This document shows positions 1 through 4,617 of a stretch of DNA of 4,617 bases, piece by piece (the stretch's first letter is position 1; each line of letters opens with the position of its first letter). Below the pieces are notes generated by a model, which was given only the letters and a program-made list of their open reading frames with translations, did not search any database and had not been told where the DNA came from. The stretch is from a virus (lineage: Duplodnaviria; Heunggongvirae; Uroviricota; Caudoviricetes): the IMG/VR virus record IMGVR_UViG_2681813274_000008; one strand, given 5' to 3'. Position numbers and translations under genes: made by a program.

Positions 1-37
1 CATCGGGCATTATCTGAACATAAAACACTATCAATAA
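1..37 (+). CDS. insB: IS1 transposase InsB (InsAB') C-terminal fragment; 5' part outside window
   Basis: Codons 2-34 read I-G-H-Y-L-N-I-K-H-Y-Q followed by TAA at 35-37, consistent with the known C-terminus of IS1 InsB. Recognised from memory, not searched. Confidence 0.75.
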   Translation, partial: IGHYLNIKHYQ

Positions 38-52
38 GTTGGAGTCATTACC
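1..52 (+). mobile_element. IS1 insertion sequence, right-end fragment (terminal 52 bp including the right inverted repeat); body of the element lies left of the window
   Basis: Reverse complement of 1-52 is GGTAATGACTCCAACTTATTGATAGTGTTTTATGTTCAGATAATGCCCGATG, which matches the IS1 right terminus as I recall it (IRR GGTAATGACTCCAACTTATTGAT). The same 28-mer recurs inverted at 4590-4617. Homology ends sharply at 52/53. Confidence 0.88.
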
Positions 53-646
53 TGCGCCCCCCTGTGGAATGTAGTAATAACGTTCCATAACGCGGGCACG
101 CCATATTTCCAGATTTTCAATATCTTCACCGTCTGTAATGGTGTCAGCGTACCCTGTGGACGGCAGACCACTGACGGGTGTTCCCAGTTGCATGGCAATA
201 CCATCATCCGTATTCCCCGCCGATCCCGGTTCGTCTGCCACAACAGGCACCCGGAGAAGACCATCGGCTGCGGTCACCGTCGCCGTCGTGGTAAAGGTCA
301 CCTGATTATCACGCTGGATCTGCGTTCCCGCTGGCAATACCGGCGTCCCCTCTACGCCATCCCAGCGCACAAATCCCCGGGCTGCCACCGCTTCTTTTCG
401 CGGGCAGCGTTTGATTCTGGCGTGCCGGTACAGCCAGTCTTCATCACACACGTCCGGTAACAGATTTCTGGCAAGATAATCGATATACCCGTACAACGTG
501 TGTACGGCTGCAGCCTGTACACGGGCATACACTTCCGCATCCATACGACGAAGCAGCGTATCCTGCTCAAAGCGGGTTAATAAATCGCTCCGGATCATAG
601 AAATAAGTTGCGGGAGGCCGGGGCGATAAAACTGACTGTCAGCCAT
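53..646 (-). pseudogene. Baseplate J-like protein (Mu gp47 / P2 gpJ family), 5' portion only; truncated by IS1 at 52/53
   Basis: ATG at 646-644 with GGAG (complement of 655-658) 8 nt upstream. Open frame of 198 codons (MADSQFYRPGLPQ...ITDGEDIENLEIWRARVMERYYYIPQGGA) runs straight into IS1 sequence. Position directly after the gp46-like gene matches Mu gene order, and the E-x-D...R-x-R...GG motif region resembles baseplate J proteins. The ORF track omits it because no stop occurs inside the window. Confidence 0.65.
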
Positions 647-1049
647 TCAGTTCACTCCAGATATCATCAAAAATAATGTTGTGAATATTGCCGTCACGCT
701 GGTAAATGGTAATGGCAAGTGCCAGCGAGTCTGTCCCGGTCCGGACAGCGTTAATATCAAGACGGGAAGCAACACCATCCTCCACCATCCACGCCAGCGC
801 CTCACGGACATAATCTCTGGCAAGCTGCGGGGTTTTATTTGTCAGCTTGCTGCGTCGCAACAGATACAAACGCGACCCCGTGCGATCATTCTGAACCGCA
901 GGCCAGGTATCCCCCCACCATCCAAATATCCGTGGTGCATCATCACGCCCGGCACGCCGCCATGTAAAAAGCGAAATAATCACAGCACGCGTCAGAAGGT
1001 CGATCGAAGCCCCGGTCGACACGGGTCGCCCGTTAACATTAATCATCAT
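639..1049 (-). CDS. Mu gp46-like baseplate protein (GP46 family)
   Basis: 136-aa ORF; size, position between the gp45-like and gp47-like genes, and motifs (FGWWGD, GSRLYLLRRSKL) fit the phage GP46 family. Its TGA stop overlaps the gp47 start in an ATGGCTGA arrangement. Confidence 0.75.
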   Translation of the reverse strand: MMINVNGRPVSTGASIDLLTRAVIISLFTWRRAGRDDAPRIFGWWGDTWPAVQNDRTGSRLYLLRRSKLTNKTPQLARDYVREALAWMVEDGVASRLDINAVRTGTDSLALAITIYQRDGNIHNIIFDDIWSELNG

Positions 1050-1054
1050 GATTT

Positions 1055-1588
1055 TCAGCCCATCGGTTGATCCGGCGTGTCAGTGATCCCGCCACCATCA
1101 CCATTTTCGGTATGTTTGTGGGCATTGTAGGCCTGCCGCATTTGCTGCATGCTGAGTCCGCCACTGTCGCAATTGTCAGTAATATCGGCGGTGGATTCGA
1201 CTGGCATTTCAAAGCGCGCTTTAGGCGCGTTTTTAAAAATTATGGCCTTCCCGGCCCCGTCCACCACAATACCGGAACGGGTCAGGACAACGGACTGTCC
1301 CAGATCGTCATAAAGCGCCACTTCCCCACGTTTCAGTCCTTTCAGCCGGTAACGTCTGTCAGCCACGACCACAACCACACCATGAGAACGATCGCCCGCC
1401 GGAAATAAAGCAACGCCCTCAGCACCGTTCTGTGCGGCAGATGTAAAACCATAAGGTTCAAGGTGCTCAACGTGTTGTTTCTGATCTCCGGCTATCATTT
1501 TCAACCCTACAGACTGACACTTTCTGGCGGAATCCACCGCCGTGATGACAGCCCGGGAAATCAGATTACGAAGAGAAAACCCGTTCAT
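1055..1588 (-). CDS. Baseplate spike / baseplate assembly protein V (Mu gp45-like)
   Basis: 177-aa ORF; central region PYGFTSAAQNGAEGVALFPAGDRSHGVVVVVADRRYRLKGLKRGEVALYDDLGQSVVLTRSGIVVDG is typical of the gpV/gp45 OB-fold spike family. GGAGG (complement of 1596-1600) lies 7 nt upstream of the ATG at 1588-1586. Confidence 0.85.
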   Translation of the reverse strand: MNGFSLRNLISRAVITAVDSARKCQSVGLKMIAGDQKQHVEHLEPYGFTSAAQNGAEGVALFPAGDRSHGVVVVVADRRYRLKGLKRGEVALYDDLGQSVVLTRSGIVVDGAGKAIIFKNAPKARFEMPVESTADITDNCDSGGLSMQQMRQAYNAHKHTENGDGGGITDTPDQPMG

Positions 1589-2654
1589 CAGAAATCCTCC
1601 TCAACATTTTTTTCTTCCTGGCGGTAACAGGCTCGGGGAGATAAGCATCTGCCGGGCCAACCCGTAATTCAGTCGTCGTGCCCCGGTCGTCCTGGTTATA
1701 GGTAACTTCTGCGATCACCAGTTCATCATTATCAAAATTATTCAGCGGGTCGAAAACGATGACAGATAACCCCGGACGCCATAACGCGCCACTGCCCTGC
1801 CGCCAGCCCTGAACCGTATATGTTGTCTCACGGGTAAGCGCAGCCCGTTGGCGCGCTTCAAATTCACAACGGGCCTTACAGGTTGCTGTCGTTGCTGTGC
1901 CTGACTGCTGAATCAACAAAGGGCGATAACGGGTCACGCCACTGTCCTGAATGGTCTGACGTATTGCGGCAATGGTGGCCTCACCAAAATCATCGTCGTT
2001 GCCCGGGCGCTGCCCACTGACCTGATATTCAGAAAACCGCTCTCTGATGCTTCTTTCCGTGTCACAGGAAAGAATATTCTCTCCCAGCACCAGCACCAGC
2101 ACCAGCGCCGTCGCCGCTTTACCTGTTCCGGGTTTTCCCAGAACCAGTCGCCCGCATTCATCGTCATAAGCCAGCGTCTGAACCTGCCCCAGTAACCGGT
2201 TAAGACAATCGGCAACGGTTTCGCCGTGTTCCGGCTGGGCATCAATCACCGCTGTCTGCGGCACGCCAGCATCAACAACGGTGATGCCAAATGGCGCAGC
2301 CAGTTCACTGACTATTCTGAGCAGGTTTTTTCCGCTCTGCTGGAGTGGCAAAGCAGAGCAGTCAACCAGATCGGCTGTTTTGCTTCGCCCGACAATTCCC
2401 ATGCTGACGCTGCTGGCGTCATAACGAAGCGGTAGTGCCTCCACATATCCGGTGAGCACAGGCTCATCCCCGATAAGCACTTCAACCAGCTCACCATTTT
2501 TTATCCGGGGTTGATAATCCCGGCTTCCGGGCCAGCGGGTGGTAATGGCAACATTAAAATCCCGGGCAATACGGTTAATGCCCGCACTGATACGGACGGA
2601 TGTCCAGCCGCCCCATTCGCGACCGGAAACCCGAAGTAAAACGGTATCATTCAT
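1566..2654 (-). CDS. Baseplate hub protein (Mu gp44 / gene P; P2 gpD late control D family)
   Basis: 362-aa ORF; length and C-terminal region (WRPGLSVIVFDPLNNFDNDELVIAEVTYNQDDRGTTTELRVGP) fit the gpD/Mu P family. Start ATG overlaps the N gene stop (ATGA at 2651-2654); its 3' end overlaps the gp45 start by 23 nt. Confidence 0.85.
   Translation of the reverse strand: MNDTVLLRVSGREWGGWTSVRISAGINRIARDFNVAITTRWPGSRDYQPRIKNGELVEVLIGDEPVLTGYVEALPLRYDASSVSMGIVGRSKTADLVDCSALPLQQSGKNLLRIVSELAAPFGITVVDAGVPQTAVIDAQPEHGETVADCLNRLLGQVQTLAYDDECGRLVLGKPGTGKAATALVLVLVLGENILSCDTERSIRERFSEYQVSGQRPGNDDDFGEATIAAIRQTIQDSGVTRYRPLLIQQSGTATTATCKARCEFEARQRAALTRETTYTVQGWRQGSGALWRPGLSVIVFDPLNNFDNDELVIAEVTYNQDDRGTTTELRVGPADAYLPEPVTARKKKMLRRISDERVFSS
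2085..2106. repeat. Hexanucleotide tandem repeat (CAGCAC) x3.7 within the baseplate hub gene
   Basis: Direct reading: cagcac cagcac cagcac cagc. On the coding (minus) strand it encodes A-L-V-L-V-L-V-L. Confidence 0.9.
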
Positions 2655-4060
2655 CTGACGGGTACCCTTAATGCCCTGACCGGAACAAAGCCCGGATGAG
2701 AGATGGCATTTCGATCCAGGATATCAGTTTCACGGGACGCATCGTCGTACCATGACGCAGCCAGAACAAGCGCAGGCAGAACTTCCGCTGGCGTTCGCTC
2801 TGCGGTTTCCTCCGTCTGAACCAGACGCGCCTGAATATCCCGGTTCAGTTCTGTACGTAATGACGTCAGCTGAAAAAACAGCCTGTCATCCGCCGTACGC
2901 CTGAGCTCCTGTTCAATCGCCGCGTTCAGCGATTTGCGTATGATGGTGAGATTTTCCCGCGTGGGTGGTTGCGCTCTCTCATCCTGTCCTGTGCTGGCTG
3001 CCACGCTGTCAAGTGCCGGATGAGAAACGTGAATAATATCGGACTGACGTTCAGTGGAACCACCAACAGCCACAACCGCCTGCTGATTTTTCACCAGGCT
3101 TCCGGGTTGTGGCAGTGAAGTGACCGCCCTTGTGGCTTCGCTGATTGCCGTCGTCCGGATGACAGCAGCCACAAGGTTTGTCTGCTGTTTTTGCCTGATA
3201 ACCGATGCGGAATCTGTGGGCCACACCGCACGCGGTGCCAGTCCTGGGTCCAGCGTAATGCCGGACATTGTCGTTATGGACTGCACCAGATCCTGTGTGT
3301 TATCCACCAGCCGGGTTCCGGCCCGCCAGGTATCCTGCAACGTATGCACAAAATCACTGGCAACCGACGGCGGCATCAGAATGACGGATAAATCGCCCTG
3401 CAGTAGTCTCGCTCCGGCAGAAACAGCCGAATTAACCATTTTGAAAGCTGTCTGAACGGTTCCCAGCATATCGGTCGTCCGGGCAATAACATCGTTCTGA
3501 ATAAANNNNNNNNNNNNNNNNNNNNNNNNNNNNNNNNNGAGATCAAAATCGCCGAACATGTCTTCAATCAACTCATCCAGGAATACGGACGACTCCTCCA
3601 GTTTTCTGGCGGTTGCAGCTCCGGCGACCGGAAATGACAGTTCCCCGCTCTCAACAAACTGAAATGAAACCCGGCACATACGGCCTTCAGTGCCGGAGTG
3701 AGAAACGGTCACCTGCCCGTCAATACAGCCCTGCATTTCACCGAACTGCGGATGGATCAGCGTCCCCGGCCCGGCGGTTTCAATCGCTGTAATCAGCCTG
3801 TCGCGCTGCTCTGCGTAATCATCACCAACGAGATACGCATTAATCGTCAGCCGTCGCGTGGCACGCCCGAGATCTTCCGTGTACGGTTTGTCACGGTTTG
3901 GGTATTCATGGACCTGAACGCGGCGTCCGAACGAACCCTCGTCGCTCTCCACCGAAAACGGAACGCCACGAAATGAAGCGTCGTAAAGATTATCGCGCCA
4001 ATTGATACCTGAAGATGCAGAAAAGAGTGAAGAAAGAGAAGGTAAAGAAGGTAAGTCCAT
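2651..4060 (-). CDS. DNA circulation protein N (Mu gp43-like; DNA_circ_N N-terminal domain)
   Basis: 469-aa ORF; N-terminal region WRDNLYDASFRGVPFSVES...GRRVQVHEYPNRDKPYTEDLGRATRRLTINAYLVGDDY...GPGTLIHPQFG matches the conserved DNA circulation N-terminal domain. Contains a 32-nt N gap (3507-3538) that happens to keep the frame. GGAG (complement of 4066-4069) precedes the ATG at 4060-4058. Confidence 0.85.
   Translation of the reverse strand: MDLPSLPSLSSLFSASSGINWRDNLYDASFRGVPFSVESDEGSFGRRVQVHEYPNRDKPYTEDLGRATRRLTINAYLVGDDYAEQRDRLITAIETAGPGTLIHPQFGEMQGCIDGQVTVSHSGTEGRMCRVSFQFVESGELSFPVAGAATARKLEESSVFLDELIEDMFGDFDLXXXXXXXXXXXFIQNDVIARTTDMLGTVQTAFKMVNSAVSAGARLLQGDLSVILMPPSVASDFVHTLQDTWRAGTRLVDNTQDLVQSITTMSGITLDPGLAPRAVWPTDSASVIRQKQQTNLVAAVIRTTAISEATRAVTSLPQPGSLVKNQQAVVAVGGSTERQSDIIHVSHPALDSVAASTGQDERAQPPTRENLTIIRKSLNAAIEQELRRTADDRLFFQLTSLRTELNRDIQARLVQTEETAERTPAEVLPALVLAASWYDDASRETDILDRNAISHPGFVPVRALRVPVR
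3507..3538. other. Assembly gap (32 N) inside the N gene
   Basis: Run of n characters; the flanking reading frame is continuous across it. Confidence 0.95.
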
Positions 4061-4065
4061 ACTGT

Positions 4066-4069
4066 CTCC
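4066..4069 (-). promoter_or_regulatory. Shine-Dalgarno (GGAG) for the N gene
   Basis: Complement of CTCC at 4066-4069, 5 nt upstream of the ATG at 4060-4058. Confidence 0.5.
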
Positions 4070-4073
4070 ACTA

Positions 4074-4098
4074 TAAAAAAACCGCCAATTTCTGGCGG
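4074..4098 (-). terminator. Rho-independent terminator (minus strand) downstream of the AT-rich ORF
   Basis: Stem CCGCCA (4082-4087) / TGGCGG (4093-4098) with a 5-nt loop; on the minus strand the hairpin is followed by a run of 7 U (complement of A-run 4074-4080). Lies 9 nt after the TAA (4107-4109) of the upstream ORF. Confidence 0.55.
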
Positions 4099-4106
4099 CT
4101 TATATA

Positions 4107-4589
4107 TTAATCATCATTAATATCTTTCATATTCAATTTGCAATTTTCGTAGGTCACTCCCGACTCGCCATTAACATTAACTCCAGCTCTGATATTCCCG
4201 TTTTCTTTTACATCTACAAAAAACTGGCCTCTTGGCATCTTGAACGCAAATGTAAAACCAACAGTATCTGAATCAAAATCATCATCTTTATATATTGGGA
4301 TCAAAAATGTCATCGTCGCTGGTGATGCATTGTTTGCAAAATCAAATACACCTATACTTTTGCCGAATTCNNNNNNNNNNNNNNNNNNNNNNNNNNNNNN
4401 NNNNNNNNNNNNNNNNNNNNNNNNNNNNNNNNNNNNNNNNNNNNNNNNNNNNNNNNNNNNNNNNNNNNNNNNNNNNNNNNNNNNNNNNNNNNNNNNNNNN
4501 NNNNNNNNNNNNNNNNNNNNNNNNNNNNNNNNNNNNNNNNNAATCCATCTGTATCCAAGTCAACGTCATTATCTGCAGATGTTTTAACG
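4107..4589 (-). CDS. Hypothetical protein, AT-rich ORF of unknown function; interrupted by a 171-nt N gap (4371-4541); 5' end unresolved, possibly truncated by IS1
   Basis: Minus-strand frame open from the gap edge (4370) to TAA at 4107-4109 (...EFGKSIGVFDFANNASPATMTFLIPIYKDDDFDSDTVGFTFAFKMPRGQFFVDVKENGNIRAGVNVNGESGVTYENCKLNMKDINDD). A second open stretch 4542-4589 (VKTSADNDVDLDTDG) continues without a start codon into IS1. AT-rich third codon positions and a terminator immediately downstream support coding. No family recognised. Confidence 0.4.
4371..4541. other. Assembly gap (171 N) inside the AT-rich ORF region
   Basis: Run of n characters; true length and content unknown. Confidence 0.95.
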
Positions 4590-4617
4590 GGTAATGACTC
4601 CAACTTATTGATAGTGT
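4590..4617 (-). mobile_element. IS1 insertion sequence, right-end (IRR) fragment in inverted orientation; body lies right of the window
   Basis: 4590-4617 GGTAATGACTCCAACTTATTGATAGTGT is the exact reverse complement of 25-52 and matches the IS1 IRR terminus. Flanking base 4589 differs from the base flanking the left copy. Confidence 0.85.

Follow-up and report, generated by a model that had tools for sequence, protein, structure and literature searches.

The baseplate of phage Mu has been determined by cryo-EM (PDB 9KI1), and each of its six wedges contains two copies of gp47, which is designated "baseplate wedge protein 2" there (PMC11915804). The Stx2e phage phiP27 (NC_003356) possesses a Mu-type tail module, and the rest of this complete 42.6-kb phage is of a different type: it has a cos site as well as genes for a site-specific integrase, an excisionase and the terminase, and a prohead protease is encoded by a separate gene ahead of the major head gene. 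A related prophage is found in the chromosome of E. coli FDAARGOS_944 (NZ_CP065613.1), where the head orthologues are annotated as HK97 family prohead protease and phage major capsid protein.

In Shigella, five IS types have expanded in every species of the genus and generate pseudogenes there, with IS1 being the most abundant among them (Hawkey et al. 2020, PMC7373316). For S. sonnei 75/02, a PHAST analysis classified a 57-kb region (75/02pp4), which surrounds the locus described here, as "intact" and gave phiP27 as its homologue (PMC5447701).

Here we describe a gp47-like gene that ends at an IS1 junction, and we compare its surroundings with these systems.

Layout of the window

The window, i.e. 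the whole stretch of DNA that was analysed, comprises 4,617 nucleotides of the virus record IMGVR_UViG_2681813274_000008. All of its long ORFs are located on the minus strand (Table 1), and positions 1-52 and 4590-4617 represent the same IS1 terminus in opposite orientations. Two runs of N are longer than the sequence they replace in genomes that are identical elsewhere: 33 N (3506-3538) stand for 15 bases and 171 N (4371-4541) for 70 bases. Because of the first run, the gp43-like ORF reads 469 aa in the window, while its true length is 463 aa.

Table 1. Features identified in the window
Feature	Position	Strand	Remarks
IS1 copy 1, last 52 bases (IRR end)	1..52	+	remainder outside the window on its left side; same sequence as the end of the 768-bp element (InsA/InsB Pfam domains) at 10998-11765 of L008 (S. 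sonnei 75/02)
9-bp target-site duplication of IS1 copy 1	53..61		TGCGCCCCC on the + strand, GGGGGCGCA on the gene strand; same 9 bases at both IS1 ends in S. sonnei 75/02
gp47-like baseplate wedge gene, 5' fragment (198 of 360 codons)	53..646	-	Baseplate_J; orthologue of phiP27 L52
gp46-like baseplate wedge gene, 136 aa, intact	639..1049	-	Pfam GP46, E=4.5e-33
gp45-like spike / baseplate assembly protein V gene, 177 aa, intact	1055..1588	-	Pfam Phage_Mu_Gp45, E=2.1e-26
gp44-like baseplate hub gene, 362 aa	1566..2654	-	Pfam GpP-like_1st, Gp44-like_2nd, GpP_4th
gp43-like (DNA circularisation N / tube initiator) gene, 469 aa as read	2651..4060	-	Pfam DNA_circ_N, E=3e-36
Intrinsic-terminator-like hairpin with T-run, between the putative moron gene and gp43	4079..4101	-	consensus scan only
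Accessory gene (160 aa when intact), 3' part; 5'-proximal part cut by the second IS1	4107..4589	-	phrog_5586; target duplication at 4581-4589
IS1 copy 2, first 28 bases (IRR end)	4590..4617	-	inverted relative to the first copy

The gp44-like hub gene contains a tandem repeat of the hexanucleotide CCAGCA (2084-2106, detected with TRF), which encodes (LV)n. Its copy number varies among otherwise near-identical complete genomes, resulting in gp44-like proteins of 358-364 aa. The repeat is not present in phiP27 or E. coli FDAARGOS_944, where the gp44-like protein has 351 aa.

The gp47-like fragment

Translation from position 646 to 53 on the minus strand gives an open frame of 198 codons with an ATG start. 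A GGAG is located 8 nt upstream of this ATG, and the last 8 nt of the gp46-like gene are shared with the beginning of the frame (ATGGCTGA), an overlap that exists in the same way between L51 and L52 of phiP27. The 198-aa translation matches the Pfam profile Baseplate_J (PF04865) with an E-value of 3.5e-24 (85.9 bits, cutoff 21.1 bits). This match extends over residues 69-198 of the fragment and positions 2-134 of the 255 profile positions and thus reaches up to its final residue, i.e. the domain is cut in the middle. The intact orthologue covers profile positions 2-255 (E=1.6e-54). Moreover, its residues 37-351 can be aligned with Mu gp47 (PDB 9KI1 chain H, 360 aa; E=4e-36).

The gp47 orthologues with 97-100% DNA identity, among them those of phiP27 and E. 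coli FDAARGOS_944, all have a length of 360 aa. A full-length member of the family would have about 300-400 aa and be alignable along the structurally resolved gp47, whereas the gene in the window reaches just 198 of 360 codons. The gene context is that expected for a gp47 gene, with gp43-, gp44-, gp45- and gp46-like genes upstream in the window and a gene of the Phage_Mu_Gp48 family behind the IS1 in complete genomes. The initial annotation had described a gene with a good ribosome binding site and an ATG directly after gp46, which runs into the IS1 junction after 198 codons and stays open beyond it, so that a truncated protein with an IS1-encoded tail would result, and had noted that baseplate J-family proteins typically have 300 or more residues. 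All of these points hold true.

One could assume that this protein naturally has a length of about 200 aa and that a split or short Baseplate_J gene lies beside an IS1 by chance. PHROGs indeed comprises half-length families for the two halves of gp47. Yet the frame is not closed by a stop codon at the junction, the closest orthologues are almost twice as long, and the Pfam domain is interrupted at position 134 of 255. Furthermore, the missing half is located behind an IS1 with a target duplication, and excision of the element restores the frame (see below). The probability of a naturally short protein is therefore negligible, and judged from its sequence the gp47-like gene of the window is a disrupted member (pseudogene) of the Baseplate_J / Mu gp47 family and not a short variant.

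With respect to the PHROGs entries, the family for the N-terminal half is phrog_2103 (162 aa) and that for the C-terminal half phrog_1608 (192 aa), as seen by comparison with the intact gp47 gene of E. coli FDAARGOS_944 (L001, 8516-9595). Split gp47 genes are thus annotated in some phage records.

The IS1 insertion in gp47

The homology to uninterrupted gp47 genes from E. coli stops at position 52 of the window. When the exact gp46 protein was looked up, ten complete or near-complete (chromosome-scale) records were obtained. Outside the runs of N, two of them (L002 and L005) show 100% identity to the window, while S. sonnei 75/02 (CP019689) differs by one indel. In all ten records an IS1 is present at the same base, followed by the C-terminal part of gp47, gp48 and fibre genes. 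The length of this IS1 is 768-769 bp in nine of the ten records, the exception being CP029794.1. In the latter (L011), both IS1 copies at the locus are short, with 464 bp (6129-6592) and 449 bp (10998-11446), which may reflect a parallel internal deletion or an assembly error.

Since no more than 52 and 28 terminal bases of the two IS1 copies are inside the window, the element itself was examined in the complete genomes. There, the distance between the IRL and IRR motifs is 768 bp, and the Pfam domains Zn_ribbon_InsA, HTH_Tnp_IS1 and DDE_Tnp_IS1 are present. The nonanucleotide GGGGGCGCA occurs on both sides of the gp47 IS1. When the element is removed in silico from the S. sonnei 75/02 locus (L008) together with 9 bp, an ORF of 1083 nt (360 aa) results, whereas removal of 8 or 10 bp instead of 9 bp breaks the frame. 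The reconstructed 360-aa protein differs from the orthologue of E. coli FDAARGOS_944 in a single residue. In addition, the gp47 fragment located behind the IS1 matches Baseplate_J positions 132-255 and is complementary to the fragment in the window. The restored ORF and the complementary halves of the domain led us to reject a naturally short gp47.

The gp47 frame continues into IS1 for 17 codons that are visible in the window and for 26 codons before a stop in the complete genomes. The predicted fusion would consist of 224 aa, and gene callers report a product of exactly this length in several of the complete genomes.

It is conceivable that the junction is an assembly artefact, i.e. that the contig ends in a collapsed IS1 repeat or is chimeric and that gp47 is really intact. 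The window starts and ends in IS1 termini, and its runs of N have the wrong length, as it happens in scaffolded short-read assemblies. Against this stands that ten independent chromosome-scale assemblies possess the same junction at single-base precision, together with a full 768-bp IS1 and the 9-bp duplication, and that the 52 bases could only be joined to the contig by reads extending from IS1 into gp47. An artefact is thus extremely improbable.

The split of gp47 has all the characteristics of a textbook simple IS1 insertion. In our opinion, the best explanation (probability of roughly 95%) is that a single 768-bp IS1 transposed into codon 198/199 of the 360-codon gp47 wedge gene of a phiP27-like remnant and produced a 9-bp target duplication, with the full picture taken from genomes that are identical or nearly identical to the window at this locus. 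Insertion of IS1 at this codon with its usual 9-bp duplication would have the consequence that the N-terminal half is made as a 224-aa fusion of 198 gp47 residues and 26 IS1-encoded residues. Such a fusion would lack the second half of the Baseplate_J domain as well as the C-terminal region. The C-terminal 162 gp47 codons, gp48 and the fibre genes beyond the IS1 would be cut off from the translation start and from upstream transcription.

Genes beyond the window

The missing parts of the module were located in the complete genomes. Directly behind the gp47 IS1 follow the remaining 162 codons of gp47, a full-length gp48 gene (196 aa, Phage_Mu_Gp48, E=2.3e-25) and then tail-fibre and fibre-assembly genes. 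Downstream wedge and tail-fibre genes had initially been regarded as absent, which is not the case; they only seem to be absent because the window ends inside the IS1.

Neither of the two IS1 junctions was detected in 5,426 complete E. coli genomes, a collection that excludes Shigella, and from this it can be concluded that the insertion is not shared with E. coli, but nothing beyond that. An exact-match scan of a species-representative genome collection with the 31-base junction gave no hit either, as is expected if an E. coli genome represents Shigella there.

The second IS1 copy and the accessory gene

The second IS1 possesses its own 9-bp duplication (CGTTAAAAC, 4581-4589), and its excision restores an ORF of 160 aa. 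Over 768 bp, this copy has 0 mismatches to the first one, and it lies in the opposite orientation.

An identical, inverted pair of IS1 elements that brackets a segment of 4.4 kb is reminiscent of a composite transposon, and the baseplate segment might accordingly have arrived as a unit. This is very unlikely, since each copy has a separate target duplication (GGGGGCGCA and CGTTAAAAC, respectively) and the phage genes on the outer sides of the two elements continue the segment collinearly and in the same orientation, exactly as they do in phiP27 and E. coli FDAARGOS_944. Also the lack of either junction in the complete E. coli genomes speaks against it. We rejected the composite transposon on the basis of the individual duplications and the collinearity with the flanks, which together indicate two independent insertions. 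Consequently, the window is a unique stretch of 4.4 kb between the gp47 IS1 and a second, inverted and independently inserted IS1.

Because of the IS1 copies at its borders, short-read assemblies break at both ends of this stretch. The longest contig has a size of 2-5 kb in 3664 of 4067 collection blocks with the gp46 of the window and in 1636 of 1699 blocks with its gp44 (approximately 90-96%). Such sizes are in line with a contig bordered by IS1 in thousands of short-read assemblies.

The 160-aa accessory gene is located between the tape-measure and the gp43-like gene and is not found in phiP27. It belongs to the family phrog_5586 (function unknown), and the intact copy has a lipoprotein-like N-terminus. 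Directly after the gene and just upstream of the gp43-like start, a consensus scan of the minus strand revealed a strong hairpin with 10 pairs and a T-run at 4079-4101. Taken together, the absence from phiP27, the lipoprotein-like N-terminus and the terminator-like hairpin after the gene make this segment look like a self-contained moron cassette.

State of the prophage remnant

Only about 13 kb, the tail module, are left of a 42.6-kb phiP27-like genome. The remnant in CP029794.1 matches phiP27 (42,575 bp) only at approximately 25.4-25.8 kb and 29.3-42.2 kb, and the locus of S. sonnei 75/02 contains the same phiP27 blocks from its first base onward. The smaller block of about 450 bp corresponds to the boundary between portal and protease genes and includes a fragment of the prohead protease of 120 aa (103 aa in one record), and the larger block extends from the sheath gene through the fibre genes. 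An IS3-family element replaces the genes from the capsid to the tail terminator.

Directly upstream of the protease fragment, an IS4 copy is present in three of the four places listed, and no gene is called there in the fourth. In one record, bamD is the gene upstream of the protease fragment. The tmRNA gene (ssrA) forms the right border, so that ssrA, smpB and ratAB lie on the other side of the remnant. It was also observed that the whole remnant together with ssrA-smpB-ratAB is located between two IS4 copies (L015/L016, 1-3000 and 20150-21089; L008, 1-1400). Besides the gp47 IS1, three further IS elements (IS1, IS3-family and IS4) are present in or next to the remnant.

By comparison with phiP27, there are no integrase, repressor or antirepressor, replication, lysis, terminase, portal or capsid genes at the locus; the integrase, regulation, replication, lysis, packaging and head modules of a complete and inducible prophage are missing. 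With everything but the tail module lost and with the additional IS elements, the prophage has to be regarded as decayed. It is dead, and the decay is of the ordinary IS-driven kind. The initial view of a decayed rather than inducible prophage is therefore right with regard to the decay, as only the tail module is left, but the argument from missing downstream genes, on which it was built, has to be dropped. The host locus is predicted to be a phiP27-like remnant, more precisely its tail module, which adjoins ssrA/smpB in S. sonnei or in a genome that is indistinguishable from it at this locus. The "intact" label assigned by PHAST is contradicted by the gene content at this locus, a tail-only remnant with four IS elements (CP019689, 762060-782470).

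Discussion

The designation of the element as a Mu-like prophage has to be corrected. The closest phage is phiP27 with its integrase, cos site and terminase, and only the tail module is of the Mu type. Judged via this closest complete relative, a Mu-type transposase, a replicative-transposition module and the head genes of a Mu-like transposable prophage are not present. The prophage can therefore be classified from its gene content as phiP27-like with a contractile tail and baseplate module of the Mu type.

As an expectation, the previously proposed defect of the baseplate module is supported, since the wedge gene is cut after 198 of 360 codons. In Mu, pairs of gp47 build each wedge together with gp46 and gp48 (PMC11915804), and for this reason we infer that no wedge and hence no baseplate could assemble. 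The effect might not be limited to gp47 itself. IS1 insertions are polar, and gp48 and the fibre genes would therefore be poorly transcribed even if an upstream promoter was present. The tail module is probably silent in any case, because the late-gene regulatory region has been lost.

Most of the tail ORFs that remain have their full length, which raises the question whether the remnant is, or recently was, a tailocin locus in which the IS1 insertion or the 224-aa fusion has a selected role instead of being neutral decay. Apart from the two IS1 hits, the called genes for sheath, tube, tape measure, gp43-46 and gp48 have the same or nearly the same length as in phiP27 in the majority of the assemblies listed, and genes of the fibre region are more variable. 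However, no lysis, regulatory or promoter-bearing region is left, and gp47 is a structural component of the Mu baseplate that occurs twice per wedge (PMC11915804). For the full-length ORFs, the simplest explanation is not selection but the young age of the S. sonnei clade, which goes back to a common ancestor of the late 17th century (PMC7373316). A tailocin function is therefore highly unlikely. One can also imagine that an ancestral, working tailocin-like locus existed and that the gp47 IS1 was fixed in S. sonnei as an advantageous inactivation, or that the IS1-bracketed 4.4-kb segment moves or inverts as a unit. Nothing found here supports either of these ideas, and even taken together we consider them quite improbable. 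Neutral decay following a simple IS1 insertion remains our preferred reading.

The gp47 IS1 insertion is already visible in published and annotated complete genomes, and in this respect it is nothing new. A Shigella genome contains several hundred IS insertions. The one in gp47 matters little biologically, being one among these several hundred and lying in a remnant that is already reduced to tail genes. It is of more use as a caution. If a contig or window ends in an IS copy, there is no basis for inferring that downstream genes are absent. Labels from prophage prediction can mislead, as illustrated by the PHAST result for S. sonnei 75/02. Finally, Mu-type tail modules also occur in phages that are not Mu-like.

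Comparison with known systems

The tail module of phiP27 (L44-L57) resembles the window with 96.7% DNA identity over positions 53-3505, and both share the order of gp43-, gp44-, gp45-, gp46-, gp47- and gp48-like genes followed by fibre genes. There are clear differences, too. The gp47 orthologue L52 of phiP27 (NP_543104.1) has 360 aa compared with 198 codons before the IS1 here, and phiP27 is a complete phage of 42.6 kb, while the locus described here is a tail module of approximately 13 kb that is broken by two IS1 copies and an IS3-family element. Unlike phiP27, it contains the extra 160-aa gene between the tape-measure and gp43-like genes.

Mu gp47 (9KI1 chain H) and the intact gp47 belong to the same family, have the same length of 360 aa and can be aligned nearly end to end, and the neighbouring genes gp43-46 and gp48 are arranged in the Mu order. 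The sequence similarity to Mu gp47 is only moderate, though, the host element is not of the transposable Mu type and the gene is cut at residue 198.

The zinT prophage of E. coli FDAARGOS_944 shows 98.8% identity over the unique part of the window (52-4589) and shares the 160-aa accessory gene. Its gp47 gene (WP_000785589.1, "baseplate J/gp47 family protein", 1083 nt, 360 aa) is uninterrupted. In contrast to the remnant, this prophage possesses head genes and has no IS1 at either site. Furthermore, it adjoins zinT, whereas the otherwise near-identical remnant adjoins the tmRNA gene. As a side note, a frameshifted ipaH effector gene is located beyond the fibre genes of the FDAARGOS_944 prophage, and its sheath gene is split by ISEc60 (L001, 2496-4137 and 16305-19105).

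The interruption itself corresponds to the IS1 insertional pseudogenes described for Shigella (PMC7373316), with a 768-bp IS1 and a 9-bp duplication inside a coding sequence. As with these other pseudogenes, further expanded IS types (IS4 and IS3-family) are found in the surroundings and short-read contigs break at the IS copies. Between the gp47 gene described here and the known IS1 insertional pseudogenes of Shigella there is no difference of substance.
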